Source: a virus (Duplodnaviria > Caudoviricetes). From it: a stretch of 64,000 bases of DNA. The notes below the pieces were generated by a model that worked only from the letters and a program-made list of their open reading frames with translations, was not told where the DNA came from and did not search any database. The translations under genes were made by a program, and so were the position numbers. The stretch lies in IMG/VR virus record IMGVR_UViG_2731957577_000001, positions 1 to 64,000 of that record. One strand, written 5' to 3'. Shown in pieces: positions 1 to 33,082 of this stretch; positions within the stretch are counted from its first letter, which is position 1; each line of letters opens with the position of its first letter.

Positions 1-165
1 CCCATGGACCGTGAAGAAATGATTTGTGAAGAATGTGTGCTGTTTCCGCGGAACTATAACCGTGAGGCGATGAAAAAGGGGAAAGCCGGCATTCCCAGCT
101 TGTTGTCGGAGATGATCATGGACAAAAGTGGCTTCGTGGCTCAGTCGTCTCCCATCCGGCTCTAA
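1..165 (+). CDS. Tail assembly chaperone-like protein, 5' truncated
   Basis: Open frame +1 from window start to TAA at 163-165 (PMDREEMICEECVLFP...GKAGIPSLLSEMIMDKSGF); resembles the next ORF; lies upstream of the tape-measure position. Confidence 0.6.
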   Translation, partial: PMDREEMICEECVLFPRNYNREAMKKGKAGIPSLLSEMIMDKSGFVAQSSPIRL

Positions 166-194
166 GCCCGTAGGCGGGGATGTGAATACGAACG

Positions 195-872
195 ATGGAC
201 GTCGAAGCCCTGAAGCAGAAGTACGAGGAGGTCTACCAGACTCAAATTCTCGATCAAGTGTTCATCATCCGCCCGCTCAGCCGGCAAGAGTACAAGGAGA
301 TTCTCGAGGCCGACCTTCCTCTTGGACAGCATCAGGAAGCCATCTGCAAGGTGGGCGTCATTTACCCCAGCGACTTTGACTTTGAGAATGGATTGGCTGG
401 TTACGCCGAAGCCCTCTCGGACATGATCCTCGACATTTCCACTCTGAAGCCAGACCAAGGCAAACAGCTTCTGGAACAGTACCGAAGTGAGATGGCCAAC
501 TTCGATTATCAGGTCGACTGCATCATTACCGAAGCGTTCCCGCAGTTTACCCTTGAAGAACTGCAGACCTGGACGGTCAAGAAGACCATGTTGTATTTGT
601 CGAGGGCCGAGTGGAAACTCGCCATGCTGCGCGGCGTACCATTGGTTCAGGTGCCGGAGGGCGATGCGCCGCCGCCGAACACTCCTTCACCATCTCCCTC
701 TTCGGAGAATCCTCCCAAACAAGGACCTCTCTCCAAAGAAGAAGTGGAAGCGATGCTCAGCCAAGCGATGGGAAAACCCATCAGCCTCGATCAGGAAACA
801 CGGATCGGTCAGCCGCTACCTGAGTTCAGTTGGTTCCGGGCAGAAGCGGAGCTGAAAGGAGAATTTGACTAG
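195..872 (+). CDS. Tail assembly chaperone-like protein (225 aa)
   Basis: FIIRPLSRQEY motif typical of phage tail chaperones; immediately precedes the giant tape-measure-like gene. Confidence 0.6.
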   Translation: MDVEALKQKYEEVYQTQILDQVFIIRPLSRQEYKEILEADLPLGQHQEAICKVGVIYPSDFDFENGLAGYAEALSDMILDISTLKPDQGKQLLEQYRSEMANFDYQVDCIITEAFPQFTLEELQTWTVKKTMLYLSRAEWKLAMLRGVPLVQVPEGDAPPPNTPSPSPSSENPPKQGPLSKEEVEAMLSQAMGKPISLDQETRIGQPLPEFSWFRAEAELKGEFD

Positions 873-888
873 ACAGGAGGGTGTTGTC

Positions 889-3800: not shown

Positions 3801-6741
3801 CTTGGAGAACCCGCTGGGTATCCTCAAGATGCTGTTTGAGAGCCAGGATGAGCGGTACTGGTGGGAACTGAAACATTACTACGACCGGCCGTATCTTCTG
3901 ACTGGGTCACTGTTCAACCCCAATACCATGTTCTTTGGCGACATCGGCAATGCGACGATTGGCCAGCTGATTAAACCGGTGAAGCAAATGCACCCGGAGT
4001 ATTGGGGGAATCCCATCCTCCTGACTGAGCAAAATGAAGAGATTGGCCAGCGACCGACCGGTCCCATTGTCACCAAGGTGTCGCCCGCAGGCCGCATGGA
4101 AAACGTCGTTCTCGCGACTCCAGAGGAATATGGCTCGGAATACCACGAGGGTTCCTCTCTGGTGCCCCAGGAGGACTACGACGAGATTCATGAGGCCGCC
4201 CCGAGACATGCCGCAGGGCCAGGACGATACGTTCGTATGGATCGTTTGGATGACGAAGGGAATCCAACCGGGGACTACACGCTGATGGATCTTCAGAGCG
4301 GCGATACGATCTTTGTGCCCAGTCGGGTGGCCAAGGAAGGATATACGCCACCAGAACTCTTTGATATGGCGGCGGCTGGACCCGAACCCTCCGAGGAGAC
4401 CAAGCCTCGGGCCATGTTCAGTCAGGAGTTTGCGTATCACAACGAGATCCGCAACCGGCGGCTTCGCAATCTGCAAGATCCACGCAGCATAAACTGGCAA
4501 GCCCAAGAGTTCGCCGCCAACTGGCAAGAGACCCTCGGTGTGTACAACTGGCTCGTCAGCGAAGAACTGTTCAACTATCAGCCGTACGCCATGAAGACGG
4601 TGATCGACAAGGCGGATCGGGCCACCAACATCTCAAACCAGTTCTGGGAAGCCAACCTGGGTGGACTTGGCGGGGAACTCTCCGAGATTGGACGCCGCTT
4701 CATTCGGCGCGACAGTGGTCAACTCCAGCATTATGATCCCGTGCCAAACCAGATGCCAGACTGGCTTCCGGGTGGAGATTATTTCCTCAACTTCCATGTT
4801 GGAGATCCTTACGCTCTCATCCCCTACGGGGAATACCGGTTGCCGGGTGAAGCGTATGAGAAACTGAATCCTTTGCACCCGGACGAGACCGGCCGCTACG
4901 GCGCATTCGATAAGTTCAAGATCCTTGCTGATGTGGCGCCGTGGTCAGATGAGTACAAGTTCTGGCGGGACTATGTCACCCATAACATCACCGACGAAGA
5001 ATTGCGGAAACAAGCGGCGGACATCAAGCGACAAGTCGCCAAACGCAAGCAAAAGTACGAGTTCTACGAGTATCGCTTCAAGGACAAGGATCTGAAACTC
5101 GAGAAGGTCCATGTCACGAAGCTGCTCGATGACTATACATTCTTGACGAAAGAGTACCCGGATACGCCGATTCGTCTGGCCGGCATGCGGTATCAGGCGA
5201 AGGCACCTGGGGTTTTGGCCAGCTACATTCACCCGGGGGATGTCGTGACCATTGGGGTCAATGCCGACGAGCTGCATCGGGTCTCGGATGATACCTATGG
5301 CACGATGCGCGCGGTTGTCTATATCGATAACCTCAAGAACATCAACCTCGACATCCTGCAAAAAGGCCTGATGAAAGAAAACGAGACCGACTTCTCCGCG
5401 CCGGCGGTCCACGCGCGATTCACACCGAAGGAGATTCGGGAAGGCCAGCGATGGGAAACCATTGCCCACTTTGAATCGCCGCTGAACACGAAGTTCCTGC
5501 AGGTTCGCAGTGCCCTTGAAGAATACGAGCGAGACCAAGTGTACGGCAAGGACTATGCGACGTGGCAAGACTTCATGATCCGGGATTACCTCATCCCGGC
5601 CTACCAATCGGAGATTCGTAAGGATCCTGCGGAAGCCGCCATGCGTGGCGCATTCATGGGTGCCTTTATCGGACGCGTCTTTTTTGGTGGTGGGCGCCGA
5701 ACCATCGGTGGGGCTATCATCGGCGCGCTGGTGACTGGTTCAGGGAGCCTGTGGCGAGAACACTGGGAACACGAACATGGCGAGACGTGGATCCCGAAGC
5801 GCCGGCGGATTGAGAATGACATCAACGAATACTTCGACCTGTTGAATTACATCAAGTACAATGCCTTGTACAACAAGGCGAAGGACGAGGCGAGGGAAGA
5901 AGGCTACGATGTCGACGCCATCGTCCGGTACATTCAACAGAAGCAGGAAGACACCAAACGCCTTCGTCAGCAGTTGCAGGCGGAGAAAAAACGGCTGTAT
6001 CTGGAGCAGCCCAAGGACTTCGACGAGAAGAAGAAAGCGATCAATGAGAAACTGGAAGCTATCGACGAGGATAAAGATGAACTGGTACTTCCAGAAATCG
6101 TGGTCGAAGCTCTAGAATACAAGAAGAAACGGGATAGCACCTTGTATGGGGTCGATCCCTATGGAGATCGGCTTCAAGTCATGGCGGCATTCCCGTACAA
6201 GGATCGGTGGTTCTTCAACGCCTTCGTGGAGGCGTCTCCGAAAGAGCGCCAGCGTATTCTTGAACTGGTTCCCGATAACGAGAAGCGCATTTACAAAGCG
6301 ATCTGGGGGATGGATCCCGGAGAAAAGCCGTCTTTGGAGGACTACTTCACAAAGAAGTATTACCTGCCGGGACCGGATTGGGCCGGATGGCGTCCCGAGT
6401 ACGACCTGAACGACATTAAACTCAAGGTCATTCGGAACTACGACAGCCTGGATTTGAGTGATTTCAACTTCTGGCCCGAGGATGTCGAGGCGGCAAAACT
6501 GGCGCCGGATCTGAATCGCGGCAACCAGATTTACCGTTCCCATGTCGACACCACGTTCAAAGGGTATCGGGAGATGTCCCGGCGCATTCAAGAGGTACTG
6601 GAAGGACAAGGTCTGCGAGATGTCCGCGTGACGGCCGCGCCTTCCGGCTCTAACAACTCCCGGATCATCTTTACCTATCAGGAAGACCGCAGCCAAGAGA
6701 TCGCGGACAACCTCAAGCAGAACATCGACCAGTACGTGTAA
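889..6741 (+). CDS. Giant tape-measure-like / ejected protein with a degenerate thermonuclease (SNase)-like domain
   Basis: ORF opens at 865; GGAGG at 876-880 favours GTG 889. Mostly helical composition with hydrophobic Gly-rich segments (IGIGVLAGAALLAVG; GAFMGAFIG...GGAIIGALV). SNase-like VTKLLDDYTF...IRLAG...DTYGTMRAVVY...NINLDILQKG at about 5098-5372. Confidence 0.7.
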   Translation: MAYEDYENAYSSYLDMDNRTHARFLRSEDDRDDTPLYQKIGIGVLAGAALLAVGHRTGALHQLGRFLETEGKGTLQAAKEAWRERGSVLRPETYSEMGQAFLERRREITEELRARNEDFIRKREYDMVRYLRQRQELLEKQLPFHIEERIRQGQILNHLRQAGIREEAVHQVESAFHAARAGFLRHAGDEQLRLHLAQHGVSDQDVLNEVIRARAIHRDSIRNTAEGIAWIDGMRKRWREQTAHDIQTTTRDQSKSGRLIRGHKRATIQDILDLHEAGVIRIDADTLTQIHDVLKYNKKFGEAIFDENLYLVTKNGRTVLQDYKVYDQIGRRTMEWWAKMLPGGLLHLRDILNVKEAREKAAFRIFEAGTRQPVLNAHLGIAPQETLREPVVFSNGHFGRLMDANVINNDAPIEILNPNRRMYLTSSRFGTIGKITRQVSGIATDHKRRNKFTEALDLFNQMRDTEYAEWFSIGTKFFNPDWERNKVRKALTERLGYDDFFDMHRYFSRYTEGFSPRVFKNLVEYMPGHLQGFIEHEGINFNRDEDVLKLFEYLSQDKEATFSLRQFWGQYERDKYGVLGRKYPVGEANPFLGGYVKIQTGMDQIRQKVSLELIRQIEEVRPFASRTNIREIAEELQAQGKILRSDLEQISWLKNFFDLERRGREIYTDKDAALAEINDLFHGSSEDSRQFRASLESMVKKTNPIWQKYASTRAANRVGDEYIAVNQANFKSLSDVIKQLGFRTGRRNLEDFTTLSVFGSFYPVYRLQEALGTMGLGFSDASMGSPLQLWSSLILKRFLPIGLGVAYWQYLDYKADDWTGMSISGRWETYKANKALNEAAERDESGETEQRKREMMLHPGIEQFGEMPAITLPGLGRIGMGNLAQVVTGTLGLPTRPQDAMSEEELLEYYQQGTDPVRKGRWWLFGSKSAYRGDRIIQFAPNAYRRATSGWEYSDVTATGEERWSHSMIPTLENPLGILKMLFESQDERYWWELKHYYDRPYLLTGSLFNPNTMFFGDIGNATIGQLIKPVKQMHPEYWGNPILLTEQNEEIGQRPTGPIVTKVSPAGRMENVVLATPEEYGSEYHEGSSLVPQEDYDEIHEAAPRHAAGPGRYVRMDRLDDEGNPTGDYTLMDLQSGDTIFVPSRVAKEGYTPPELFDMAAAGPEPSEETKPRAMFSQEFAYHNEIRNRRLRNLQDPRSINWQAQEFAANWQETLGVYNWLVSEELFNYQPYAMKTVIDKADRATNISNQFWEANLGGLGGELSEIGRRFIRRDSGQLQHYDPVPNQMPDWLPGGDYFLNFHVGDPYALIPYGEYRLPGEAYEKLNPLHPDETGRYGAFDKFKILADVAPWSDEYKFWRDYVTHNITDEELRKQAADIKRQVAKRKQKYEFYEYRFKDKDLKLEKVHVTKLLDDYTFLTKEYPDTPIRLAGMRYQAKAPGVLASYIHPGDVVTIGVNADELHRVSDDTYGTMRAVVYIDNLKNINLDILQKGLMKENETDFSAPAVHARFTPKEIREGQRWETIAHFESPLNTKFLQVRSALEEYERDQVYGKDYATWQDFMIRDYLIPAYQSEIRKDPAEAAMRGAFMGAFIGRVFFGGGRRTIGGAIIGALVTGSGSLWREHWEHEHGETWIPKRRRIENDINEYFDLLNYIKYNALYNKAKDEAREEGYDVDAIVRYIQQKQEDTKRLRQQLQAEKKRLYLEQPKDFDEKKKAINEKLEAIDEDKDELVLPEIVVEALEYKKKRDSTLYGVDPYGDRLQVMAAFPYKDRWFFNAFVEASPKERQRILELVPDNEKRIYKAIWGMDPGEKPSLEDYFTKKYYLPGPDWAGWRPEYDLNDIKLKVIRNYDSLDLSDFNFWPEDVEAAKLAPDLNRGNQIYRSHVDTTFKGYREMSRRIQEVLEGQGLRDVRVTAAPSGSNNSRIIFTYQEDRSQEIADNLKQNIDQYV

Positions 6742-6753
6742 GGAAGTGACGAG

Positions 6754-9700
6754 ATGGCCGATTACTTGAATCTGATCAGTGCCGGCGTACAAATGGTGAC
6801 CCAGACGCAAAGCACAACGCCCATCGGCATTTTCTATCCGGTCCAACGCCGGCCACGAAAAGATACCACGGAGTACGACCAGCGTGTCGCGCATGTACTG
6901 GGTCGGATCAACAGCACGAGACTGAGTTCGAACTTTGGCAAGCCGGGAATCTATGACCACTTTGTCTCGATGGCACAGTCTGCCCGACATCCCGGCCAGC
7001 CGGCCGTCGCCACCTTCAATGAGTTTGTGCGCAGAGCCATGCACGGCGTTCACGGTCGATATGTGGCGTTTGACATTGAGACCCTTGGGGATGCCATGAC
7101 GGGTCATGCGCTCTCAATCACCGAGATTGCCGCACAAGGATTCAATCCCATCCTGGGAACAGACCGGTCCGGCCGGCAGCTGGTGGTCGGGGCCACCCCG
7201 TCGAATGTCCGATTCAGCGCGATCATCCGGCCGACGAATGAGACGGTGCAGTATTTAGAAAACCTGATCACTCGTCTGGAACGGGATCCATACGCATGGC
7301 GATTCATGACAGACGCGGAGAAGAAGTCTTTGTATAACCTGATTCGCTACGATCCCGAAGGACCAGAAGGCGCTCAGCTCGAGGATCCTTGGCGCATTCG
7401 GCACAATCCTCTGGCCGCAATGCTCGAACAAGATCCGCTTCAGAACATGCAGCCGTATACCGCCAACATGCGCCGAGGTCTGGAATACTTGATGGAGAAG
7501 GGCACCAACCCACAAGACGTGATCCGTCAATATGATGACTTCATTCGACGGCACTCCGCCAAACTGTTTCTCTCCCAAAACGGGACCCAGTTCGACCTTC
7601 CGGTTCTTCAGCGTTGGGCCGAGCAAATGGGAGAATCTCTTCGCACACCGGCCAATCACTTGGACCTTCTGACACTGAATCAGACCATCTTCCAAAACCC
7701 GATCACCATGCACCAAGTTTATGGACAAAATACCGCGGTACGTCGATTCGTGGATGGTGCTTGGTCTTTGCAGGAGTTGCGCCGCACGTTCGGATTTGAG
7801 GAAGGTCAGGCCCATAGCGCGTTACATGATGTGGGTGAGCATGGCTTGGGTGGCGTGTTTGCCAAAGCCCTCCCGTGGATCCAACGTCAGATTGAGGACC
7901 GAAAGATTGATCCAACAACGGGATTCAGCCATCGCTCTCCAGTGTTTACGTGGAGTGATGCGAAACTTCAAGTCGGCCAGAAGCTGTTCTCTGTCGGCGG
8001 CGTGATGGCCATGCCGGGAATGGAAGATCACCAAGCTGTCCTCCGGGATGGAGAGTTCGTACCCTATAATCCTGGCTGGAACCGAACGATCATCAATACC
8101 CATACGTTCTATGAAGTGCAGGGAATCCGAAGGCTTAACCAACAGGGAGAACCGCTCAAACTTGCGATTCAATTGTACGACCAAGATAACGACCGTTACG
8201 CCTTCATTATTCGAGAAGGTAAGGATGCAATGGCTCAGATTGGTGAGTTCTTGCAAAGAAGCTTCATCAACTGGGATGGGGCGGATGAGGAAACCAGAAA
8301 CAAAATCCGAAAGCGTCATGGAGAAGAGTACGCACGGCGCGCGTATCGCCGTCTAACCAGTCTGGAGGGGGCCGGTCGCGGCATGACGGCTGGCTTTATC
8401 GGAGCTAGGCGGATGTATCAGAACGCCGCCATGTATGAGAAGCGCCTTCAAGGTAAAGCCGGAAACATGCAGGATAACTTTGACGAGAACGGCAACATCA
8501 TAGACCCCACACGGCGCATTACGCACCAACAGATGCTCGAAGGCATGGACTTCTACAGCAAACCCGGTTCCACTCCAGAGGAGCGCTTCAACCAACAAGA
8601 ATGGGAGAGCTTTTGGTACATGCAACGTCGGCTTCGGTCGGAATTGCCGGTGATGATGCCGGCGCTGGAAGCCATCGAAAAGGCATTTCCTGAACCGACG
8701 AGGAGACGCAATGAGAGCGAATTAGAGTATAAAAACCGTCTCTTCGAAGCGCGCCGGCAGCGCGATATTGCATGGCGGCTGTTTAATCAGTATCTGAATG
8801 AAGTTGTTGGCGACGATGGTCATGTCGAGGAGCTTCCGCTTGAGGAATATGAGAACCGTGGTCTCCATTTCCGAGACCGGGAGACAAAGAAGCCCGTATA
8901 CATCAACTTCACGGATACCACCACGGCGTCAACGAGTATTTATCGCCATATCGCACATGAAAGGGAAGAGGTCCGAAAGCAGAAGCTGACGTCTCTCATT
9001 CACTCGTTGCGCGAGAGCAGCGCCATTGACGATGACACGGCGGAGTATTTCCATCAGGTGAACGCGAATACCAAAGGCATCAGTGAAACGGTCCGGACGA
9101 TTGTGCAGCACCTGATGGCCAGCGCACAAATCATCCGGGATAAAGAAACTGTGTTGTCGCTTCGTGAGCGAAAGGCCATTCAGAAGATCTCGGATGATGT
9201 GTCCAAGGAACTGGTTCAGCGAGCCATCGATCAAACGAAAGGTGCGTGGGGAGTCGCCATTCAACGATCCTTTGGTGATAAAGAACTGCGCCTGAGCCCC
9301 GAGATGTCGCGCTTCTTTGATGAGGAGCTGGATCGGGTCAACCCCATTACGGGCCTGGAACCGAATAACAAGCAAGCGGTCATGGAAGTGCTGAATCGCT
9401 ATCAAGAGATGTTCCCGCATATGCAATTTGCCTTGTCGGTGGCAAAGGACAAGACGGCGGCGGTCATCCACATGTATGACCCGGAGCATAGTGCAAGCGT
9501 GATGGAACATGTCCTGTCCGGCAAAGAACATCCGAACGCGCTTCAGCTGACGGTTCCGCTTGTGACTGAGCGCGGCACGATTGAATACGGAAACCGGAAA
9601 CTTAACTCCCGCGTCACCTGGATGCCTGGACAAGGCAAGCAGGTCATTCGGGAGATGTCCTCGTCCGAGATGATGGCATACCACCTGACCGGCGAGCGGC

Positions 9701-12700
9701 GCATGAACGCAATCCGTGAGGCCATTGAGGCAGGTGACTGGAAGCGAGCCAATGACCTGGTTCGTCAGGGACTCAACAAGGGACTGGATCATTTGGCCAC
9801 GATCAACTTGCAGGACTTTGAGATCAAGGACAACCTGTACAATAACAACCCGGCGGACCTGGTTCGCACCGGTCGCGTCGACATCTCTCCGGCCATGATT
9901 CACGACCTGTACAACCGCGGAATCTTGCGGGAGAAGTACACCGATGAATTTGGTCAGGAACGAAGCGACTTTGTGAACCCCGACGAGGTTTTCTATACGG
10001 ATAAGAGAGGGAACCGCCGACTCAAGCGTCTGGTCAACATCTCGGCGCTGACCATCGACAGACAGGCGGAGCTGGTCATGAATGCGAGGAAGTGGGCGGA
10101 GGAACACGGCCGTCTCATCTACTCCTCGAGCATCAAAGGCGATATGGTGGCAAAAAACCTGTGGTCTTTGATTGACGGCCGGGATCTGGTTACTTACGGT
10201 ACCTTCACCAGCATGGGCCGCGACAACCCGATCCAGTTCCAGAATGTCTCGCGGTTCTTGCCGGAAGTTGTGGAGCGCCTGGGTCAGACGAAGGTGTATC
10301 ACAACTTCAATGAACTGGTAGCCACTCCACTGCAGCACGCGCTGCGGGAGGCACATCAGGATCGTTTCAGCATGAACGTGAAGATGACCTACATGAATGA
10401 GGCGGATCTTCGCAACCGGGTTATGGAACTGGCGGAAACAAAAGAAGGTCGTCGGCTGTTGCAGGAGGAGGGCTGGATTGATGAACAAGGGAACATCGAT
10501 CCAGTGCGCATCGGCCGCGTCTACGAACAGCAAGCCGTCTTCAACCGTGACCTCATCAATGCCCTTGAGGTCGAACGACAGAAGTTCTATGACATGGGAG
10601 ATGATCCTTCGACCTTTGAATGGGATGAGAAGCTGCTTCGCAATGGGGAGCCGATCGAAGGCGCCACGCTAAAGCCAGGCCAACGCATTGGATGGGCGAT
10701 GATCGGCGGAAAGCGTACCGAGATTACCTATGACCGGCCTTATGAAGGGACACTCTGGAGCACCGATGGCCGCATTGGTGTGACCTGGCGAGAGAAGCCC
10801 TTCAAGTTCTTCTTCGAAGGCGAGAAAATGACGCGGGTCGGTGAAGGCGTATCACAGCGCTTGCTTGAACTCATCACGGGCGTCAAAGGCGTCGCCGGTA
10901 TCATGAATACCGATGTCACGAAACACGAGGACTTTGGTGCCATGATGGCGGCACAGGCCAAGAAGCTCGCTGCCTTTACCATGGGTCTGCAGAACGAACG
11001 AGACCGCCAGCGCGCCATTGAGATGATTCATCAAGCGAACATTGGTCTGCGTTGGAATGGTTCCTATTTCGAAGACGTGAGCAAGGAACTTCAGGAGATC
11101 AATGCCAAGGCCTTCCGCGATGTCGCTGAGCAGCTGGATCGGGCGCTGGGTAAGGCCAAAGGCGCTGATCGGAGTCTCTTGGTCAATACGAAGCCACAGA
11201 AATACCAGGCGGTGTGGGGATTGGGTGACTTCCGCATGGCGAACGTCGCCCCAACCGGATTCATCGTCGACAAGGAAGGCAAACACATTTTCTACATGGA
11301 TGAAGATGATGACCTTGTTTCCAGCGGCGAATATAAGGGAACCAGCTACAGCCACCGTGAGATTGGTGTACTCAAAGCTACAGGTCGTGAGAAAACGGCA
11401 AACTATGTACTCGATCTCATGCGGAGACATGGACTCGAAATCGGCCGCAGGCAGGAGACCGTGAATTTTCTCAAGTCGATGGAGGCGTTTGTGGCGCCAG
11501 AAAATGTGGTGGACCCACGCTTTAGTGAAGACTCAGTGGTGCGGCTTGGTGTCCATGACCTTCGTCCTCTCCCGGATGCTTCCGAAGTGACACCGACCCA
11601 AGAACACTATACAGGCACCATCTTTGACCGCCAACATATTGAAAAACTGCTTGGCGACAAGTCGAACGAACATGGATTCTGGTTTGCCCTGCCGGAGTTG
11701 CCAGAGGACATGCGGATTCAGGTTCTGGAATACGCGCGCGGATATGGCGGTGCCAGGGAGAACCTCTCACGGCCCATTGATAAGATCTTCATCCCCTATA
11801 CTGAGCTTCGCGGCCAGGGCAAGAACATTTATCTCTCGGAGGTTCAAAAAAGCATTGCCGACATTTATCGCAAGGCTCAGGCGGTGCGTGAGGCCGCAAG
11901 TAATCAGGAACTCGTCGATGCACGCAACGAGCTGCAATCGGCCGTGGACCGGTACATTAACACACTGGCTTATAATGTGACTTCCTCGAAAGGACAAACC
12001 GGAGAATCGACGTTCAAGGTCCGTCTCCCGTCCTCGATGCGTGGACGTGCCGCGCTGATCTCACCCGAAGAATCACAGATGCTCCAAGGTGAGCATGTTT
12101 TTATCAGTGAGCATGATGCGAGAAAGATGGGCATCTATGACGATTTGGCGGATGGACAAACCCGAGAAGTCATCGTGAACCGCTATCCGACCTTCCACCA
12201 GGATGCTTTGAAACAGGCCATTCTCCACATGCGCAGTGATGTCGCACCGGGAGAGATTCACGTGACGTCCGGTATCGCGGACCTTCTCAAGGCCGACGCC
12301 GACGGTGACGAGCTGAACCTCTTCTATGCGGCGGACAAAGAGATCCAAAACGAGTGGCGCCACATTCGAACGATGGAAGAGAAGATGGCGGCACAGCGGA
12401 CCAAAAAGATCCTCAACGACTTTGCCGAATCCCCGCGTCGCTTTGATTTGGAGAGTTTGGCGGCCGACCAAGGTGGCGTGTTCCGCCAGATTGAACCTGG
12501 CAATGCGGAAACTCAGGCAAAGATGGGGAAGATGTTTGTCGGTCTAGCTGATACGATGAACTTGAAGCTCCGTCAATTTGCCGCAGACTTTGTAGAGGAT
12601 CGGGACCAGCGTGCGGCGGTAGAGAGTTTTGGCCAGGGCTTGGTCCAGCGGATCATCTCCTCCAAACACGGTGGCACAGACATCGGCGCCTTGAAGATGC

Positions 12701-13536
12701 TCGATGCCATGCGACTTGGAAACTGGGATGAGCTAGAGTCCATTGACCAGGACTACTTTGGCGGTGTCCTGACTCAAAAGCACCGCCTTCGTGAAGCTGT
12801 ACCCGTTCTCAAGGACATCACCACGAAGCTCCAATACGGTCTTTATAACCCGACGCTCAACTTCGGTACGGCCGGCGGATGGCGCGTCAACAAGACCGGC
12901 TTGGCACCATTGATGGAGGCCGTACAGGGGCGGCTTACAGATCGTGAGTCCACGGGCAGCAACCCGTTCCTGCAAATGCTTCAGGATTTGATGGGTGTCG
13001 AATCCGAAGACGGCCTGCCGAAATACCGGGTCGAGCCGTTCCAAACCCAAGAGCCACTTCGACGGCCGGAGCGCGCGGGTGGACTGGCGGGTTTCATCAG
13101 TGAGACGCTCGAGGATACCACAGGCGGGATCGTCGATGCCTTTCGTCCGGGAACGATGCAGGCCATTACAGATCGGATCAAGACATTCTTCTCAAAACCG
13201 AGAAACAAGTGGGGATTCATCGGCGGAATGCTCGGACTTGGTGGTATAATGGCTTATAATACCCTTCATGAAACGGAACTTGAACCGCCTCCGGGACCGC
13301 CGACTCCGGCGATTTCTCCGATCGATGAACCCTCTCCTCAAGGCGCCAACATCTCCATCTCTGCCAGCGGAGACAAACAGCCAGAAGAATCCTTTGGTCC
13401 TATGGTTCACGAAGGCATGCGAAATGCGGGGTACAATGGCGGCCCTTCGAATATGACGGTCAACTATACGGACAACACCGCCAATCTGAACCGAAACTGG
13501 TATCGAGACAAGGTTCAGCAATCGATGGCGATGTAG
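6754..13536 (+). CDS. Single-chain two-barrel RNA polymerase (fused beta/beta-prime-like) with N-terminal DEDDh exonuclease; putative virion RNAP
   Basis: DEDDh: FDIET (D at 7072), NGTQFD, HSALHD. RNAP: SBHM-like GATLKPGQRIG..YEGTL, KFFFEGEK, NRYPTFH (12178), KADADGDEL (12289), GLADT (12541), ESFGQGLVQRIISSKH (12622-12669). C-terminal hydrophobic WGFIGGMLGLGGIMAY. Confidence 0.88.
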   Translation: MADYLNLISAGVQMVTQTQSTTPIGIFYPVQRRPRKDTTEYDQRVAHVLGRINSTRLSSNFGKPGIYDHFVSMAQSARHPGQPAVATFNEFVRRAMHGVHGRYVAFDIETLGDAMTGHALSITEIAAQGFNPILGTDRSGRQLVVGATPSNVRFSAIIRPTNETVQYLENLITRLERDPYAWRFMTDAEKKSLYNLIRYDPEGPEGAQLEDPWRIRHNPLAAMLEQDPLQNMQPYTANMRRGLEYLMEKGTNPQDVIRQYDDFIRRHSAKLFLSQNGTQFDLPVLQRWAEQMGESLRTPANHLDLLTLNQTIFQNPITMHQVYGQNTAVRRFVDGAWSLQELRRTFGFEEGQAHSALHDVGEHGLGGVFAKALPWIQRQIEDRKIDPTTGFSHRSPVFTWSDAKLQVGQKLFSVGGVMAMPGMEDHQAVLRDGEFVPYNPGWNRTIINTHTFYEVQGIRRLNQQGEPLKLAIQLYDQDNDRYAFIIREGKDAMAQIGEFLQRSFINWDGADEETRNKIRKRHGEEYARRAYRRLTSLEGAGRGMTAGFIGARRMYQNAAMYEKRLQGKAGNMQDNFDENGNIIDPTRRITHQQMLEGMDFYSKPGSTPEERFNQQEWESFWYMQRRLRSELPVMMPALEAIEKAFPEPTRRRNESELEYKNRLFEARRQRDIAWRLFNQYLNEVVGDDGHVEELPLEEYENRGLHFRDRETKKPVYINFTDTTTASTSIYRHIAHEREEVRKQKLTSLIHSLRESSAIDDDTAEYFHQVNANTKGISETVRTIVQHLMASAQIIRDKETVLSLRERKAIQKISDDVSKELVQRAIDQTKGAWGVAIQRSFGDKELRLSPEMSRFFDEELDRVNPITGLEPNNKQAVMEVLNRYQEMFPHMQFALSVAKDKTAAVIHMYDPEHSASVMEHVLSGKEHPNALQLTVPLVTERGTIEYGNRKLNSRVTWMPGQGKQVIREMSSSEMMAYHLTGERRMNAIREAIEAGDWKRANDLVRQGLNKGLDHLATINLQDFEIKDNLYNNNPADLVRTGRVDISPAMIHDLYNRGILREKYTDEFGQERSDFVNPDEVFYTDKRGNRRLKRLVNISALTIDRQAELVMNARKWAEEHGRLIYSSSIKGDMVAKNLWSLIDGRDLVTYGTFTSMGRDNPIQFQNVSRFLPEVVERLGQTKVYHNFNELVATPLQHALREAHQDRFSMNVKMTYMNEADLRNRVMELAETKEGRRLLQEEGWIDEQGNIDPVRIGRVYEQQAVFNRDLINALEVERQKFYDMGDDPSTFEWDEKLLRNGEPIEGATLKPGQRIGWAMIGGKRTEITYDRPYEGTLWSTDGRIGVTWREKPFKFFFEGEKMTRVGEGVSQRLLELITGVKGVAGIMNTDVTKHEDFGAMMAAQAKKLAAFTMGLQNERDRQRAIEMIHQANIGLRWNGSYFEDVSKELQEINAKAFRDVAEQLDRALGKAKGADRSLLVNTKPQKYQAVWGLGDFRMANVAPTGFIVDKEGKHIFYMDEDDDLVSSGEYKGTSYSHREIGVLKATGREKTANYVLDLMRRHGLEIGRRQETVNFLKSMEAFVAPENVVDPRFSEDSVVRLGVHDLRPLPDASEVTPTQEHYTGTIFDRQHIEKLLGDKSNEHGFWFALPELPEDMRIQVLEYARGYGGARENLSRPIDKIFIPYTELRGQGKNIYLSEVQKSIADIYRKAQAVREAASNQELVDARNELQSAVDRYINTLAYNVTSSKGQTGESTFKVRLPSSMRGRAALISPEESQMLQGEHVFISEHDARKMGIYDDLADGQTREVIVNRYPTFHQDALKQAILHMRSDVAPGEIHVTSGIADLLKADADGDELNLFYAADKEIQNEWRHIRTMEEKMAAQRTKKILNDFAESPRRFDLESLAADQGGVFRQIEPGNAETQAKMGKMFVGLADTMNLKLRQFAADFVEDRDQRAAVESFGQGLVQRIISSKHGGTDIGALKMLDAMRLGNWDELESIDQDYFGGVLTQKHRLREAVPVLKDITTKLQYGLYNPTLNFGTAGGWRVNKTGLAPLMEAVQGRLTDRESTGSNPFLQMLQDLMGVESEDGLPKYRVEPFQTQEPLRRPERAGGLAGFISETLEDTTGGIVDAFRPGTMQAITDRIKTFFSKPRNKWGFIGGMLGLGGIMAYNTLHETELEPPPGPPTPAISPIDEPSPQGANISISASGDKQPEESFGPMVHEGMRNAGYNGGPSNMTVNYTDNTANLNRNWYRDKVQQSMAM

Positions 13537-13547
13537 GGGGAAACTCC

Positions 13548-16500
13548 ATGGCAACAACCGTTCTCGATGACCGGGACGCCCTATATGGGGCGCTCCCTGA
13601 CCATCATTTGCGAATTGGAGATACACAGTTTTACGTACCGCCAACGGCGATTCAGGTGACGCGGCGCGTGCGATCCGACCGGATCAATATTTTGCGTGGC
13701 CGCGGCAGCTTTGCCAAGCAAAGCGGATACTCGGACTTAGTGGTTGAGCTGACGTTGTTCTTTCCAGATACACAGTCGATCAATAACGAACTCCGGCCGC
13801 TTTTGGCTCAGTTTATGAAATGTCCGTTCTTGCCGATTGAGAACACGCATCTAAATAACGTCCACAAGATCGAAGCGGTCACGGTCGAAGGCTTGACGGT
13901 TACAACCACACCTGGTTTCCCGACGACCCTGACCGCGACCATTCAGCTTCTTGCATTCAACCCTTGGTCGTATCTCATCGATCAAACCGGCCGTACCTTT
14001 GATGAGATGATCAACTGGCCGCTGTTTCGTTGGTACTACCAAAGGAACCTAGAGCCTTCGAAATACCGGTACATCCGCTATTTCGAGCCGCTCACCGAGG
14101 ATCTGGACAACAGCTACATCTTCCGTGTAGCCTCCGAGCAGGATCTAAGTGCCATGAAAGCCTGGAGGGTACAGGAGAATAAGCTGTATCAGGATTGGTT
14201 GCAGAAGACCCAAACGACCGATCCGGTGCAGGACATCAAGAATGAATTCGCCTCCGACGAGGATTTCTGGAACAAACTTGACCAACAAGCTCGAAGCGCT
14301 ATTTTCGAGTACGACATTCATATGGAGGAGTGGCCCATCCCCAACCTCCATCTGGTGAGTCTATCTGCGAGCTTCCAGAACATTATCAGCACTGTTCAAT
14401 TGCAGATGCACGAAGCCCCGACGCATCAGTACCTTGGGTCTCAGGACACCGTGTTTGCCGCGGTATTTCAAACCGATGACGAGGAAGCGATTGCGTCGTT
14501 GCAAAACCTCGTGCGCCGTTCCTCATATCTGACCCGGGAGTACCATACGGTACTGTCGAACGGCTTTCTTGAGTTTGATAATCAACTCGCCCGGCTTTTT
14601 GGAGTGCATTACGTCATCATCGATGATATGGTTGTTCGCAGCGTGGAAAACATGCCGGGTGTCTTCGAGGTCACGTTACAGATGACCTCGTACAACCGGA
14701 TGCAGCAGCGGCTGGCGGAAACCCAGATGATTGGCGGTAACGTGAAGTGGGATCTCGGTGGAGCGTTCACGAACTCGTTCCTCAAGATGCTGACACCCCT
14801 TACGTCTTGGTCATGGCTGCAAGATCGTCCGTTCTGGAAGCAAATCACGAGCGATGGATGGAACGAGCTGGACATTCAAAAACAAGCGGTCTACAACGCA
14901 GCCATCCGGGAAGCCTTCAAGATCATCGAGGTGTATCCCGATCTCGAACTCCCGACGTATGCGGAAGTCGAGCAAGCCGGCTTCTCGATTCCGAACACCA
15001 ACGGTGGCTATTTCGTCGACCCGGACTTTTTCATCATGTACGAGGACCCGTTTGAGTTTAACAACATGCTCAAAGACGAAGTGGCGAAGTCCTACACCAC
15101 CGTATTGAGAGATGCCGGCGGTGGTAAAGCGGAGATTACGCCGAGTACAGCCAATCCAGACGAAAAGACCCAAAAGGACATCGACGAGAAAAGTGCCAAG
15201 TATGACAATCCTACATCTGGCATCTCCTCGGGCGATCCCCCGGATACGGCGGACCAGAAGAACCTGTCGACGGCGGACATGGAAACGCTGATCCGAGAAA
15301 AGGCCGCTGCAGAAGGGTTGGACCAGCGGTTCGTCATTGCCTTTGCGAAAATGAACGACGCCAAGCTGCGGCAGTTTTACAATCCTGGAATTGGCGCGAA
15401 CAAAGAGTTGGACAACATCACGGTATCTGACTCCAACATCCCGGTCATGCAGACTGCGGATCTGCATTACTTTAAGGACCCAAGCCTGATTCAAGAAGCT
15501 GCCTATATCGGTGTCATGCGCGTCAGTCCCTTGATGGGGGATGCGCAGGCACTGGGTCGGAGCATTGTCTACAACGTGACCCAAGGCGTAGCGGCCCTCA
15601 AGTATTACCTAAGCCAAGTTGATGATGCCGGGACGATCAATCAGAACGTATATGATGCGCTTGGCCTGGATCCCGACAAGGATATTCAGAAGGCAAAGTA
15701 CGCCGCGGCCATCGCTTTGTATCTGGGCTTCGGCCGAGAGTGGAATGACCTGGTCAGTCAGAATAAACGCTTGCCGTACCTTCTCACGGCCAAGATCAAG
15801 GCCGTCCTCTCGGACATGGATAAAGAGTCCAAGTGGTCCAGCCAGGATCTGAAGAAGAAGTATTCGGCATTGCCCATTGCTGACCAAAAAGCGCCGGCCA
15901 ACACCGAGGAAGATCTGTCCGCACAGTTCCAACCCGATGAGCCTGGAAACGAATCGGATTATGAGAGTGACGATTTCACCTTCCGGGGCATGTTCCAGGA
16001 CATGATTCAGTACGACCGACGCGGCCGACTGATTCGTGCGTTCCCGACTTTCTTTATGGTGTTCATCGATGAGGGTCAGTACGTGGACGGCGTGGTGAAA
16101 CTGGCGGATCACTTCTTTGGGTATTCGGCGGTATCGGACATCACCTATACGAACAACCGGAAACAGGCCTCCAGCACACTCGTCGTGGAAATGTGCAACG
16201 TCTTTGGCAACCTGACGGATGCAACGAAGAGCGTGGACCTGACTCATCCCAACACCCTGAGCCTGTTTGAATCGCTCTTTGTGCCAACGATGGAGGCGGC
16301 ACACATTGAGCAAAGCCGCGACCGGAATTCGAACTACTACAAGTCGATCTTCCTGCGCACGGGGGCCAGAGTGCATTTCCGCATGGGATACGGCTCCAAT
16401 GCCGCAGAGCTGCCGACGATCATGAACGGCACGGTGACACAGCTCGAGAACAACGGGGATACCGTGACGATGATCGTCCAGGATGATGGGGTGGAACTGA

Positions 16501-20260: not shown

Positions 20261-20629
20261 ATGTCATGGACGGACACTTTGAATGATATTCAATTCCAGC
20301 CAGACGTTGACATCGACGATATGGTCAACCAGTTTCATGCCACCAACGGGACGGACAATCAAGATGTCGGCTTCGTGCATCGTATGACAGGCGCCGGCAT
20401 TTTGGCCCGCTCCAGTGGTACGCTCGAAGGTTTCGCTGATTATGGACTTGGCTTTCGGATCGACCCAGACACGCAAAGCATTACGTTTGTCGCTCCCACA
20501 ATTCAGTTCCTCTGCTATCAAACAAAGACGTACGACCCCAACTTCAAGCAGCCGCTCAACCCCATCAACAAGGAATTTGCAGACGTGTTGCAGATCTTAG
20601 GAGGGACTCCCGATGGCACTTCGGTATGA
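20261..20629 (+). CDS. Putative spike-associated beta-rich protein
   Basis: AGGTG RBS before ATG 20261; short beta-strand repeats; lies between the OB-fold gene and the gp25-like gene. Confidence 0.45.
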   Translation: MSWTDTLNDIQFQPDVDIDDMVNQFHATNGTDNQDVGFVHRMTGAGILARSSGTLEGFADYGLGFRIDPDTQSITFVAPTIQFLCYQTKTYDPNFKQPLNPINKEFADVLQILGGTPDGTSV

Positions 20630-21014
20630 CGATTATGACTTACGCTTCTACGGAAATGGAATTGAAGGCGATCTACAGGTGGACCCTGTAACCGGCGATT
20701 TAGCCTTGACTGAGCAGTGGGAATGTCCCCGGCAGGATATGACCAACCGGATTCGCACACAGACGGGGGACTGGAGTACGCACCCGGATATTGGCGGGGA
20801 TCTGGAGCTTCTTGAGGGGGAACCCAATACCCGGGCCACCGCGGATCAAGGAGCGGCTCAGATTTTGCGAACACTCACGTTTGATGGACGGTTTTCTCCT
20901 GCGGATTTGACCATCCGGCCAGTGCCGACCAGCATCGACCAGATCGATTACTACGTGTTTCTTGACGCCGGCGCCGATCAGCCACTGGTTGTCAAACAGA
21001 CTTCTCAGTTGTAG
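20613..21014 (+). CDS. Baseplate wedge / sheath initiator, gp25-like
   Basis: GDLAL...RIRTQTGDW..HPDIG motif, 133 aa, directly upstream of baseplate J. Confidence 0.75.
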   Translation: MALRYDDYDLRFYGNGIEGDLQVDPVTGDLALTEQWECPRQDMTNRIRTQTGDWSTHPDIGGDLELLEGEPNTRATADQGAAQILRTLTFDGRFSPADLTIRPVPTSIDQIDYYVFLDAGADQPLVVKQTSQL

Positions 21015-21022
21015 GGGAAGGG

Positions 21023-21886
21023 GTGAGTGATGTGGCCACCCTGATCAAACGAACCGCCGATCAGATTCTCCAGGATGCCTTGACCTACATCCCGGCGAAC
21101 ACACCGATTACCAATCTCACGCCGGGAGCCATTGCCCGCGCGCTGGTCGAGGCCATGAAAGACGAGTATCCACGGCTATACGACTATGCAGAAACGATCC
21201 TGAACATGGGATTTCTAAGTACCGCCGAAGGTCAGTATCTGGATCTCATCGGTGGACTCTTTAGCTACCCTCGTCGAACCACGACCGTCATCGATCAGAC
21301 CACAGGCGAGATGAATGATGTCCTCATTGATGATGACACATATCGATACGAGATTTCACAACGGGTGCTGGCCGCGGCAAACGCCAACTTAACCGCATTG
21401 CGTCTGGCCATTCTACCGGTTCCAGGTGTGGATGATGTGGTGGAGAAGGAGTATGCGCAGGGCACTGGCAGCTTTAGCTTTTACGTCATCACCTCCAACG
21501 GATTTACACCGGAGAGTGTGCAAAGCCAAGTCCAAGCGGCCGTCGAGGATGTGAAAGCGTTCGGTGTTCGGGACAATATTCTGCTTCCCACAGAGATTCC
21601 CCTCGACATCAGCCTGCAGCTTACCCTTGCAGACTCCGTTTCCGACCAGGATGCACAACTGATTCAATTGAACGTGAAAACGGCCATCTACAATTACATC
21701 GGCAACCTCAGTATGGGGCAGGGATTGATCTATAACGAGTTGGTCAAAGCCATCATGGATGCGGATAGCCGGATTCAGGAATTCACGATCACCCAGTTCT
21801 ATCTCAATAATGAGCCGGCGTTGCTGACCAACCAGAATGTCAATGATGACGAGCGAATCGTGGTCTCCAGTGTCAACGTAAGCTGA
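21023..21886 (+). CDS. Baseplate J-like wedge protein
   Basis: TNLTPGAIARALVEA, TAEGQYLDLIG, DDDTYRYEI, VPGVDDV, GTGS motifs. Confidence 0.85.
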   Translation: MSDVATLIKRTADQILQDALTYIPANTPITNLTPGAIARALVEAMKDEYPRLYDYAETILNMGFLSTAEGQYLDLIGGLFSYPRRTTTVIDQTTGEMNDVLIDDDTYRYEISQRVLAAANANLTALRLAILPVPGVDDVVEKEYAQGTGSFSFYVITSNGFTPESVQSQVQAAVEDVKAFGVRDNILLPTEIPLDISLQLTLADSVSDQDAQLIQLNVKTAIYNYIGNLSMGQGLIYNELVKAIMDADSRIQEFTITQFYLNNEPALLTNQNVNDDERIVVSSVNVS

Positions 21887-31624: not shown

Positions 31625-33082
31625 GTGAGGGCCTTGAGCTACTCATACATATCTCCAAATGGGGACATCCTCATTGTCTCCGATGCCGAAATTAACTGCA
31701 CTCGGCTCGTGAATTCGGATGTTCAATCGGATCCTGTGGCCGTCGATGAACCATTCTACCAAGACTACCGGCCAACCCATCTTCAGTTTCAAATCCAATC
31801 ACCCGTCCAGGAACAAACCCTCCAGATCACCATCCCGTACTTGAATAAGCTATCCACCTTGGAAGCACGGCATGCGGTCATCTGTCTGCATGATGACGAC
31901 AACAAAGTCTGGCGGGTCTTGGAGACCACCGTCAATGAAGATGGCAAAACACTCATGGCAACGGCCAATCAGGTCGGAATGATCGCGGTTTTCTTGAACA
32001 AGTATTGGTATTCGGCGCGTGCACAGATCATGGCGGATACTTTTCCAAGCTGGACATATATTCGGCAGTCCTCCAAAAGTATCGGCCAGCTTTTCTTGAA
32101 CTTCTTTGGCCTCAAGCTCGAGGAAGTCGAAGAGCAGCTCAATTTGATTGAAAGCCAGAAATATATTGGCACGCTCCAAGTCGAGATGCTCGATTGGATT
32201 TATATTTATGAGTTGCCCAGTGTTCAGCCGACCGATGACCTGACACTGTACAACGACGGCCGGCCCATTCCGATTCTGGATACCATCGAGCAGTTCTTCT
32301 ACAACGACCTCGATGATGGCGGGATCATCGATTACGACAATCGACGATTTTACTCCCGATTCAAATACGACAAGTTCAGTGGACTCATCAATAACGTGAA
32401 TCAGCGTGTTTCCTTTGAGTCCACACCCATTCCACAGCTGCTTTGGAACGCGTTTGACGAATTTGGTCTCCTCGTAGGACTCGCGCGCCTGCCTATGGAG
32501 ACCAATGCTCAATTCAAGGAACGCATCCTCGATGTCTTCCGTTATCCGGCTAACTCCGGTGACGAAGGACTCACCAATGGGATTGCCCGCGAACTGGGCC
32601 TTGTCCAACGCGTCACATGGGCCAATGATTCGAAGCATCTGTACCTCAAAGGCCGCAGCATTGACCCAAGAAGTCTCCGCGTAGATGGGCAGACGTTGCA
32701 ACCCAATGAGTACAAGCAAGATGAGTTCGGCAACATCATCGTCTTGGCTAGAGGAAATGGCGGATCTCACGTGGTCTCGTTCATCGCCGGAATTGAGAAG
32801 TATGAGCTACATGATCAAACGAATGAACAACTCTACCAGCTCATGTTTACCCCAGATGGACAGGCAACCCCATTGCTTCGGAATTGGGTGGCATACATTG
32901 AGAAAGTGGCGCCGATCATGTGGGGACGGTTCACCTGGGATGAAGGCTCCTGGGACACGATTGACAAGGCGTTTACGGGCCTTGGTTATCTGCCAAACAT
33001 GTGGGACTCCGACATTGAAGTCTGGAAGAACTACACCTTTGATCCAAAGCGGTGGGAGAGTGAAAGTATATGGCGTTCGTGA
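31625..33082 (+). CDS. Virion structural / baseplate-associated protein
   Basis: 485-aa ORF with NAFDEFGLLVGLARLPMETNAQFKERI, a wedge-like motif; overlaps the start of the next gene. Confidence 0.6.
   Translation: MRALSYSYISPNGDILIVSDAEINCTRLVNSDVQSDPVAVDEPFYQDYRPTHLQFQIQSPVQEQTLQITIPYLNKLSTLEARHAVICLHDDDNKVWRVLETTVNEDGKTLMATANQVGMIAVFLNKYWYSARAQIMADTFPSWTYIRQSSKSIGQLFLNFFGLKLEEVEEQLNLIESQKYIGTLQVEMLDWIYIYELPSVQPTDDLTLYNDGRPIPILDTIEQFFYNDLDDGGIIDYDNRRFYSRFKYDKFSGLINNVNQRVSFESTPIPQLLWNAFDEFGLLVGLARLPMETNAQFKERILDVFRYPANSGDEGLTNGIARELGLVQRVTWANDSKHLYLKGRSIDPRSLRVDGQTLQPNEYKQDEFGNIIVLARGNGGSHVVSFIAGIEKYELHDQTNEQLYQLMFTPDGQATPLLRNWVAYIEKVAPIMWGRFTWDEGSWDTIDKAFTGLGYLPNMWDSDIEVWKNYTFDPKRWESESIWRS

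Follow-up and report, generated by a model that had tools for sequence, protein, structure and literature searches.

The gene at positions 6754-13536 of the window (throughout, the whole stretch analysed: the first 64,000 nucleotides of IMG/VR virus record IMGVR_UViG_2731957577_000001; Duplodnaviria, Caudoviricetes) encodes a giant protein, P0001, whose C-terminal half is almost certainly a genuine homologue of the two-barrel RNA polymerases (RNAPs) with an intact active site. The same chain carries a predicted DEDDh-type exonuclease near its N-terminus, and we lean toward the reading that the protein is carried in the virion, delivered to the host, and starts phage transcription there. The gene is real and the observation made in the original prediction, from the sequence alone, was confirmed. 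The open reading frame (ORF) is uninterrupted over 2260 codons and starts with ATG, a Shine-Dalgarno-like AAGGAAG lies upstream, and the preceding giant gene stops 12 nt before the start. It is the middle one of three successive giants (865-6741, 1958 aa; 6754-13536, 2260 aa; 13548-19823, 2091 aa). The motifs on which the prediction was built were found by script where it had placed them (YEQQ, 10522; KFFFEGEK, 10804-10827; SHREIG, 11350; NRYPTFH, 12178; KADADGD, 12289; GLADT, 12541; ISSKHGG, 12655).

Conservation of the polymerase half

A word-indexed search returned eight full-length relatives of 2226-2633 aa (28-39% identity), and an exhaustive profile search returned 84 family representatives at E < 1e-3. 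Nearly all of the latter were 2100-3100 aa long, the matched region spanned approximately residues 1100-2100, and no cellular RpoB or RpoC was found among them at this threshold. Conservation was assessed in an alignment of 39 full-length members with 17-39% identity to P0001. The residues invariant in the C-terminal half were Q1161, K1351, K1358, T1360, R1810, P1812, D1848, D1850, D1852, and G1930. Seven of these (K1351, K1358, R1810, P1812, D1848, D1850, and D1852) belong to the eight residues universal to two-barrel RNAPs listed by Ruprich-Robert & Thuriaux 2010 (PMC2919709), and apart from Q1161, T1360, and G1930 no invariant of this half falls outside that set. The eighth universal residue may correspond to E1258 of the YEQQ motif, which was Glu in 37 of the 39 sequences and Asp in the other two. 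R1810 and P1812 aligned to NRAPTLH / NRQPSLH (counterpart Rpb1 R446/P448, NRxPxxH), and the D1848/D1850/D1852 triad (ADxDGD) aligned to NADFDGD of RNAP largest subunits. K1351 and K1358 (compare Rpb2 K979/K987) lie inside the module that matches the Rpb2 class by fold, and two weak alternative alignments exist for their exact residue pairing.

The family profile matched the PDB sequences of the phiKZ non-virion RNAP (nvRNAP) gp55 (E 3.8e-6), Pol V (6.3e-5), and Pol I, Rpo1N, and Rpb1 (~1e-3), and the aligned stretch in every match was NRxPTxH...ADxDGD. Local hhalign comparison with twelve Bacillota RpoC sequences aligned across the same stretch (E 2.4e-4). Pfam RNA_pol_Rpb1_2 (PF00623) matched residues 1792-1871 at E 7.6e-4, which is under its gathering score; it was matched by 9 of the 39 members, and no other Pfam family recurred. 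PF05183, looked for in P0001 and the 39 members, gave no match at E ≤ 0.1. For the beta-like half, hhalign comparison with a 12-sequence Bacillota RpoB alignment was not significant (E 0.15-0.2), and sub-alignments gave E 0.0097 (HRE region with GEME), 0.038, and 0.096 (YEQQ/PGQRIG/EGEK). The last of these placed YEQQ on YEDA of bacterial beta, pairing E1258 with the Glu and Q1259 with the Asp. These sub-alignments are collinear, which is suggestive and not proof. The sole match of the whole protein to PDB sequences in phmmer, a capsid protein at E 0.25, was discarded as chance.

Predicted fold of the polymerase half

An AlphaFold2 model of residues 1130-2060 was built from nine sequences (predicted local distance difference test, pLDDT, 70.4; predicted template modelling score, pTM, 0.46). 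Such a model and its Foldseek comparison with RNAP subunits had been proposed as a check on the original prediction, and both large-subunit classes were matched. Foldseek gave at least 500 PDB matches at E < 1e-3, and all 50 listed were RNAP large subunits of the beta-prime or the Rpb2 class, including beta-prime 4xln_D (E 1.6e-7) and, in the Rpb2 class, Pol I A135 and vaccinia Rpo132. In VIA-align comparisons, the Rpb2/beta class matched model positions 1-373 (protein 1130-1502) with Z 14.6-14.9 (270-282 aligned residues; root-mean-square deviation, rmsd, 4.0-4.8 A), the partners being the Pol I/II second subunits and the African swine fever virus (ASFV) and plastid homologues. The same module matched the AR9 nvRNAP (Z 13.3), the phiKZ nvRNAP (Z 13.0), and bacterial beta (Z 11.7). 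The largest-subunit class matched model positions 451-756 (protein 1580-1885; Z 8.2-9.6), and many isolated double-psi beta-barrel domains matched positions 630-745. QDE-1 (Z 8.6, 146 residues) and gp96 of phage P23-45 (8h2m_A Z 7.4, 8h2n_A Z 7.0; 113-116 residues) matched in the barrel region only.

With the Rpb2 class on 1130-1502 and the largest-subunit class on 1580-1885, the chain is therefore read as a beta-like module followed by a beta-prime-like module. The single-chain order originally proposed is thus borne out by the profiles, the invariant catalytic residues, and the fold matches to both classes in order. Judged from the model, the beta-like half resembles the multisubunit enzymes well beyond the barrel itself, and so the family may offer a compact model of a minimal RNAP core of the cellular type.

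Three finer assignments of the original prediction were not confirmed. GLADT had been read as the bridge helix and ISSKHGG as the trigger loop; neither gave a significant profile alignment to RpoC, and the fold matches stop at ~1885. A helix at 1918-1946 is present in the model, G1930 within it is invariant, and K1971 was conserved in 38 of the 39 sequences; the model is poor at ~1886-1923, just ahead of this helix. An SBHM-like element had also been proposed, and here PGQRIG aligned only weakly to GDILVGKV (E 0.096).

Exonuclease domain, middle region, and C-terminus

Residues 92-402, which the original prediction did not mention, are modelled as an intact DEDDh (DnaQ/RNase T-type) exonuclease and are presumed to be catalytically active. 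In an AlphaFold2 model of residues 1-1130 from the 39-sequence alignment (pLDDT 85.1, pTM 0.75), the domain matched Pol III epsilon (1j53_A) with Z 14.3 and rmsd 2.3 A over 166 of 174 residues. It was also matched by 3'hExo, ExoI, TREX, and RNase T (Foldseek E 1.4e-4 for RNase T) and by phrog_192 (E 8e-6). All five DEDDh residues (D107, E109, D281, H354, and D359) were invariant in the 39 sequences, together with E124, G242, and D304 of the N-terminal part; the gap between ExoI and ExoII holds an insertion of ~100 aa.

The middle region, in which R626 and E630 are invariant, gave no profile match to PDB sequences (residues 400-1135), and the exonuclease domain took up the fold searches run with the 1-1130 model. 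Residues 1-1130 are confidently compact, neither modelled part shows a long helical ruler stretch, and ~2,000 of the 2,260 residues are folded domains.

A C-terminal hydrophobic segment had been noted originally. The segment exists and is conserved, in that a Gly/Ala-rich feature at residues 2153-2171 is kept across the family although its sequence varies; its hydrophobicity is only mild (Kyte-Doolittle mean 1.05). Beyond it, a C-terminal domain of ~65 aa, with a nearly invariant D2240, is common to P0001, gp146 of phage 0305phi8-36, gp034 of Bacillus phage KLEB27-3, gp095 of Bacillus phage WH1, and CDS0031 of Moorella phage MTATph1 (tails aligned by eye). By BLAST, gp034 matched P0001 at E 5.6e-4 and MTATph1 CDS0031 at E 1.4e-4. 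A similarity in the last 60 residues between gp146 and its BtI1/BwK1 counterpart was reported by Hardies et al. 2007 (PMC2147016).

Distribution of the family

The family profiles matched KLEB27-3 gp034 ("structural protein") in the polymerase half (E 8e-61) and in the N-terminal half (E 2.6e-121), and WH1 gp095 ("virion structural protein") likewise (E 1.3e-42 and 2.2e-82, respectively). WH1 gp095 carries KADHDGD, and on these sequence matches both proteins are full family members. When 50,697 phage records were searched by tblastn with the whole protein, the one match was KLEB27-3, in the N-terminal part. No papers on KLEB27-3 or WH1 were found in the literature searched. The named hosts of relatives were Paenibacillus urinalis (a 215-kb plasmid), Virgibacillus salexigens, and Parageobacillus galactosidasius. 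Of 401 genomes sampled from the host's phylum, one, that of the window itself, contained the profile; the family is rare among the genomes searched.

For the equivalent protein of 0305phi8-36, gp146 (2537 aa, 7573-15186), the sequence record note states that mass spectrometry identified it in virions. It has an ExoI-like DIETTG near residue 1223 and may carry a mid-protein exonuclease rather than being a plain ruler. An hhalign comparison of a 9-sequence polymerase-region alignment with gp146 gave nothing. The MTATph1 counterpart (7766-15122) matched the family only in the exonuclease part and is without the RNAP part; it is split by an IS21-like insertion (transposase and IstB-like ATPase, CDS0028/0029) into N-terminal and C-terminal ORFs of 1309 aa and 313 aa. 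The RNAP was present in most of the lineages found at the gp146 position, not in all. Since the C-terminal domain is common to all five proteins and the enzyme parts differ, the gene at this position looks like a conserved C-terminal anchor with variable enzyme cargo.

In BFVD, the best viral matches to the fold of the 1130-2060 model were A0A8S5SD80_1, labelled "Minor tail protein" and coming from an uncultured siphovirus (E 1.3e-17, ~990 columns), and A0A7R7G2L5_2 (E 1.7e-16). Acinetobacter phage ME3 and Microcystis phage MaMV-DC also have matching proteins, which are uncharacterised. These model-based matches hint that RNAP cores hidden in tail or other large proteins are more widespread.

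Genomic context

Contig C7 (197,999 bp), whose first 64 kb form the window, has a G+C content of 52.4% vs 59.2% in the rest of the 3.63-Mb genome. The two ends of C7 join inside one gp143-like tail-chaperone gene (window 1-162 and C7:197687-197999); because both ends meet inside one gene, C7 is a complete circular or circularly permuted element. It represents a whole 0305phi8-36-type jumbo myovirus (or phage-plasmid) of 198 kb. Over the junction, the sheath gene (194.7-195.6 kb) is followed by three tube paralogues (195.7-197.7 kb), two chaperones, giant 1, the exonuclease-RNAP gene, the hub/lysin giant, and baseplate W-like and J-like genes (Table 1). The chaperones were located by tblastn with 0305phi8-36 gp143/gp144, KLEB27-3 gp029/gp030, and MTATph1 CDS24/25 as queries.

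The order is collinear with that of 0305phi8-36 (gp143/144 chaperonins, gp145, gp146, gp147 hub; tblastn extends it to gp151) and also with that of KLEB27-3, WH1, MTATph1, and metagenomic relatives at 18% identity. The tape-measure position given in the original prediction therefore stands, gp146, the equivalent gene of 0305phi8-36, being annotated as a hypothetical tape measure.

Table 1. Features of the exonuclease-RNAP gene and of the surrounding tail module (window coordinates)
Feature	Size or residues	Positions	Strand	Basis or remark
Two tail-chaperone genes (gp143-like 3' end; gp144-like, 195-872)		1..872	+	tblastn
Giant 1, homologue of virion protein gp145	1958 aa	865..6741	+	BLAST, 37.8% identity over 641 aa
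Exonuclease-RNAP giant protein (P0001), whole gene	2260 aa	6754..13536	+	ORF list and translation, synteny, 84 family representatives
Predicted DEDDh 3'-5' exonuclease domain	92-402	7027..7959	+	Fold, motif, phrog_192
ExoI	D107/E109	7069-7083	+	
ExoII	N276..D281	7579-7596	+	
ExoIII	H354..D359	7813-7830	+	
Middle region, globular alpha/beta, no named fold	403-1129	7960..10140	+	AlphaFold2 model 1-1130
Beta/Rpb2-like module, first double-psi beta-barrel	1132-1501	10147..11256	+	VIA-align matches; invariant lysines
In beta-like module: YEQQ; two lysines	E1258; K1351, K1358	10522-10533; within 10804-10827	+	Lysines invariant; E1258 Glu in 37 of 39, Asp in 2
Beta-prime/Rpb1-like module	1580-1885	11491..12408	+	Fold, profile, hhalign, PF00623
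Second double-psi beta-barrel	~1759-1874		+	Isolated double-psi beta-barrel domain matches
In beta-prime-like module: NRYPTFH; KADADGD		12178-12198; 12289-12309	+	
Long helix (GLADT, G1930) and conserved ISSKHG	1918-1946; 1968-1973	12505..12675	+	Candidate bridge-helix/trigger-loop counterparts
Gly/Ala-rich segment, then Pro-rich linker	2153-2171	13210..13266	+	Kyte-Doolittle mean 1.05
C-terminal domain (ISISASG ... DNTxxLNRxWYRDKV)	~65 aa	13339..13533	+	Candidate virion-anchoring or assembly domain
Giant 3, baseplate hub/tail lysin, gp147 homologue	2091 aa	13548..19823	+	phrog_20474, E 0
Baseplate genes: gp150-like (W-like), P2 gpJ-like		20613..21886	+	phrog_975, phrog_261, phrog_6; tblastn gp150, gp151

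Giant 1 has an N-terminal hydrophobic segment and a strongly conserved C-terminal part of ~750 aa with many invariant W, P, G, and Y residues; its KLEB27-3 counterpart is split into two genes, gp031 and gp033. It gave no match in Pfam, PHROG, or PDB-profile searches, and an ESM Atlas feature match to SNase (score 0.76) was under the meaningful level and was rejected. Giant 3 has a C-terminal glucosaminidase domain (PF01832, E 1.2e-13) and matched the hub genes of MTATph1, KLEB27-3, WH1, and 0305phi8-36 by tblastn. Downstream of the baseplate genes lie three further giant ORFs (33070-41544, 2824 aa; 41891-47008, 1705 aa; 50695-55647, 1650 aa), which matched only PHROGs of unknown function or annotated "virion structural protein."

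A second polymerase

A gene of the YonO/RdRP type (PF05183) lies outside the window at C7:154520-157795 (-), with an open frame of ~1,100 aa (1,134 aa from stop to stop; a 1,091-aa ORF from the first start codon). The PF05183 match covers C7:155492-156886 (-) with 47.1 bits (E 9.2e-13). The protein is the counterpart of 0305phi8-36 orf99 (gp99) and is likely the non-virion RNAP of the phage. In reviews of jumbo phages, the only RNAP attributed to 0305phi8-36 is the YonO-like enzyme (PMC7824862).

A phage-specific element occurs directly upstream of at least 11 minus-strand genes in C7 100,010-154,010, outside the window. Its variable stem of 4-6 bp leads into a TATC loop (TGTC in one case), and after the complementary stem comes ATTTTRGGGA, 10-25 nt ahead of the Shine-Dalgarno sequence. 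In its strict form it was found 6 times on C7, always on the minus strand, vs once in the other 3.43 Mb; the element was not found upstream of the YonO-like gene.

Proposed role and alternatives

The chain would run from the DEDDh exonuclease, presumably active, through a globular region of ~730 aa to a single-chain two-barrel RNAP core, in which two lysines would come from the beta-like barrel, and the DxDGD metal triad together with the R..P motif from the beta-prime-like one; the chain would end in the ~65-aa domain, after a Gly-rich hydrophobic segment. Through that C-terminal domain the protein would be built into the virion with the neighboring giants, probably in or at the tail lumen or hub. 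At infection it would be expelled into the cell and transcribe the first phage genes independently of the host RNAP, and the YonO-like polymerase, made after infection, would take over the later classes. The analysis itself establishes the folds, the catalytic residues kept by purifying selection, the place of the gene in the tail module, and the second polymerase, whereas catalysis, packaging, injection, the early-gene role, and any cooperation between exonuclease and polymerase are what we infer for it. That the protein is carried by the virion and delivered is likely. Delivery is favored because the C-terminal domain is common with the virion protein gp146 and because the WH1 and KLEB27-3 homologues are labelled structural. 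A place in the tail lumen as a tape-measure-like protein is somewhat doubtful.

Several observations weigh against the preferred reading, a virion-delivered enzyme that starts transcription. On the polymerase side, the model of residues 1130-2060 has moderate confidence (pLDDT 70.4, pTM 0.46), and the sequence evidence for the beta half is by itself not significant (E 0.01-0.2). The beta Asp (Rpb2 D837) is without a certain counterpart, the weak alignment at E 0.096 placing Q1259 there with E1258 adjacent. The Asn of NADFDGD helps sense the ribose in cellular RNAPs. This position is K or A in the exonuclease-RNAP family, and the choice of sugar or substrate is therefore not settled. On the virion side, no RNAP-bearing member of the family has been directly seen in virions. 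The member of the position that has mass-spectrometric support, gp146, is without the RNAP motif: it has neither the DxDxD motif nor a match to the family profile. The "structural" labels of the homologues in GenBank could not be traced to data. A classical tape measure is a mainly extended alpha-helical protein whose length sets that of the tail, whereas both modelled parts are mixed alpha/beta and globular. The lack of a long helical stretch makes it doubtful that the protein acts as a true ruler, and fitting the modelled protein into the lumen of the tail tube would need unfolding.

The globular enzyme folds, with no long helical ruler stretch in either modelled part, would suit a virion cargo that travels in the capsid, as the virion polymerases of the N4, phiKZ, and crAss types do; the position among tail genes would then reflect co-expression or assembly order only. 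Neither giant 1 nor the exonuclease-RNAP protein looks like a helical ruler, and according to Chaban et al. crAss-like and N4-related phages also have virion RNAPs (vRNAPs) joined to large proteins whose function is unknown (PMC10770324). We nevertheless consider capsid packing rather unlikely: tail chaperones lie directly upstream, the order chaperones, giant 1, this RNAP gene, and hub is strictly kept, even at 18% identity, and the C-terminal domain is common with the protein that the 0305phi8-36 authors assigned as tape measure.

An enzyme acting only inside the cell, either as a middle/late RNAP or as a structural protein whose enzyme domains act after synthesis, and not delivered with the DNA, would agree with the lack of direct virion data for an RNAP-bearing member, and the phage could use the host RNAP for its early genes. 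This is decidedly improbable, since a dedicated YonO-like polymerase of the non-virion type is already on the contig, the homologues are labelled structural, and a 2260-aa protein of the tail operon with a C-terminal domain common to a virion protein is hard to explain otherwise.

The exonuclease raises the question of a different chemistry, in which the two-barrel core and the epsilon-like domain would form a proofreading polymerase of another kind (genome-end DNA synthesis or repair, priming, or RNA-templated synthesis). Epsilon-type DEDDh exonucleases classically partner DNA polymerases, and the best fold match here was Pol III epsilon; the ribose-sensing Asn is replaced; and the archaeal DNA polymerase PolD is itself a two-barrel enzyme, as are some RNA-dependent polymerases. 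Such a chemistry deserves very little credence. The beta-like half matched the second subunits of DNA-dependent multisubunit enzymes with Z ~15 over ~275 residues vs Z 8.6 over 146 residues for QDE-1, all sequence-profile matches were largest subunits of DNA-dependent RNAPs, PolD was not among the matches listed, and phages of the 0305phi8-36 type encode their own replicative polymerase. A plain tape measure with inactive polymerase-like and exonuclease-like relics is hardly credible: 0305phi8-36 and MTATph1 manage without the RNAP part, but the catalytic residues of both enzymes are invariant in 39 sequences at 17-39% identity, and the models show compact folds in both parts, not extended helices.

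A further suggestion, which we regard as quite unlikely, is that the exonuclease acts in cis with the two-barrel site, which would make this the first two-barrel polymerase to have a dedicated nuclease, for proofreading or end processing, covalently joined to it. If so, the protein could shorten its product from the 3' end or cut back the end of the genome as it enters the cell. A resected end would give a single-stranded, hairpin-forming template on which the polymerase could start, and the enzyme might then not be a plain mRNA synthase.

Comparison with known systems

No description of the exonuclease-RNAP family or of an exonuclease-RNAP fusion was found in the literature searched, which also agrees with the original statement that the architecture is not described for Bacillota myoviruses; the precedents cited there, P23-45 gp96 and YonO, are correct according to the literature. 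A tape-measure-fused vRNAP is already published for P23-45, and the DEDDh exonuclease-two-barrel RNAP fusion is newly described here. The analysis further ties P0001 to gp146 by way of the C-terminal domain, counts proteins of the cultured phages KLEB27-3 and WH1 as family members, and adds the compact fold of the N-terminal half and the near-identity of the family invariants, as aligned, to the universal two-barrel set. The existence of cultured members in Bacillus phages gives access to the family, and the "tape measure" annotation at the gp146 position, ~20 years old, calls for re-examination.

P0001 resembles 0305phi8-36 gp146 in its position between gp145 and the hub gp147, its size, its C-terminal domain of ~60 aa, and an ExoI-like motif. 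It differs in that gp146 has no DxDxD and no family-profile match, and that the exonuclease-like motif of gp146 lies near residue 1223 and not in the N-terminal part. With the phiKZ and AR9 nvRNAPs (7OGP, 7S00) and cellular beta/beta-prime it shares the fold and the rpoBC order, phiKZ gp55 being the best profile match. Unlike these enzymes, it is one polypeptide rather than four or five, its two modules comprise ~750 aa vs ~2,500 aa of beta plus beta-prime, and no clamp, sigma-binding, or other accessory modules were detected in it.

YonO of SPbeta, 0305phi8-36 gp99, and the QDE-1-type enzymes are likewise single chains with two barrels and DxDGD, phage-borne in Bacillota. The absence of a PF05183 match places P0001 outside the YonO family; a different gene on C7 does have such a match. 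In the crAss-like phage phi14:2, which belongs to another phage order and has a podovirus-like tail, gp66 is a single-chain two-barrel virion RNAP in a ~2,200-aa protein encoded beside other giant genes, and we know of no exonuclease in it. The phi14:2 enzyme, reportedly the subject of work by Drobysheva et al. in 2021, was not among the structural matches listed, which is not evidence of difference.

The closest parallel in arrangement is P23-45 gp96, a tape-measure-fused two-barrel vRNAP (Chaban et al. 2024; PMC10770324; PDB 8H2M/8H2N) that transcribes the gene of the non-virion RNAP, gp64; the P23-45 relatives G18 and phiFa are without the fused vRNAP (PMC10770324). The Supplementary Data of that paper list no phage of the 0305phi8-36 type. 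Both systems have a single-chain two-barrel RNAP with a DxDGD motif in a giant protein at the tape-measure locus and a second, non-virion two-barrel RNAP elsewhere in the genome, and in both some close relatives lack the fused RNAP. By analogy, the parallel between the two-polymerase arrangements may lend support to a virion role here. The two differ in that P23-45 is a Thermus siphovirus and the phage here a Bacillota jumbo myovirus, and in that the RNAP lies in the N-terminal 1200 residues of gp96 and in the C-terminal half (1130-2060) of P0001. A DEDDh exonuclease is fused here, whereas the word "exonuclease" is absent from the P23-45 paper (PMC10770324), and P0001 has no long ruler part or metallopeptidase, only ~200 residues remaining beyond the folded 1-1130 and the RNAP. 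The match to gp96 (Z 7.0-7.4 over ~115 residues) also contrasts with the Z ~15 of the beta-like half to multisubunit enzymes. We therefore do not count P0001 in the gp96 family: it has no ruler part, and the structural matches to gp96 were confined to the barrel region. The strategy of placing a polymerase in the tape-measure gene, experimentally shown only in Thermus siphoviruses of the P23-45 type, would extend into Bacillota, to a large and ancient lineage of contractile-tailed jumbo phages and phage-plasmids.

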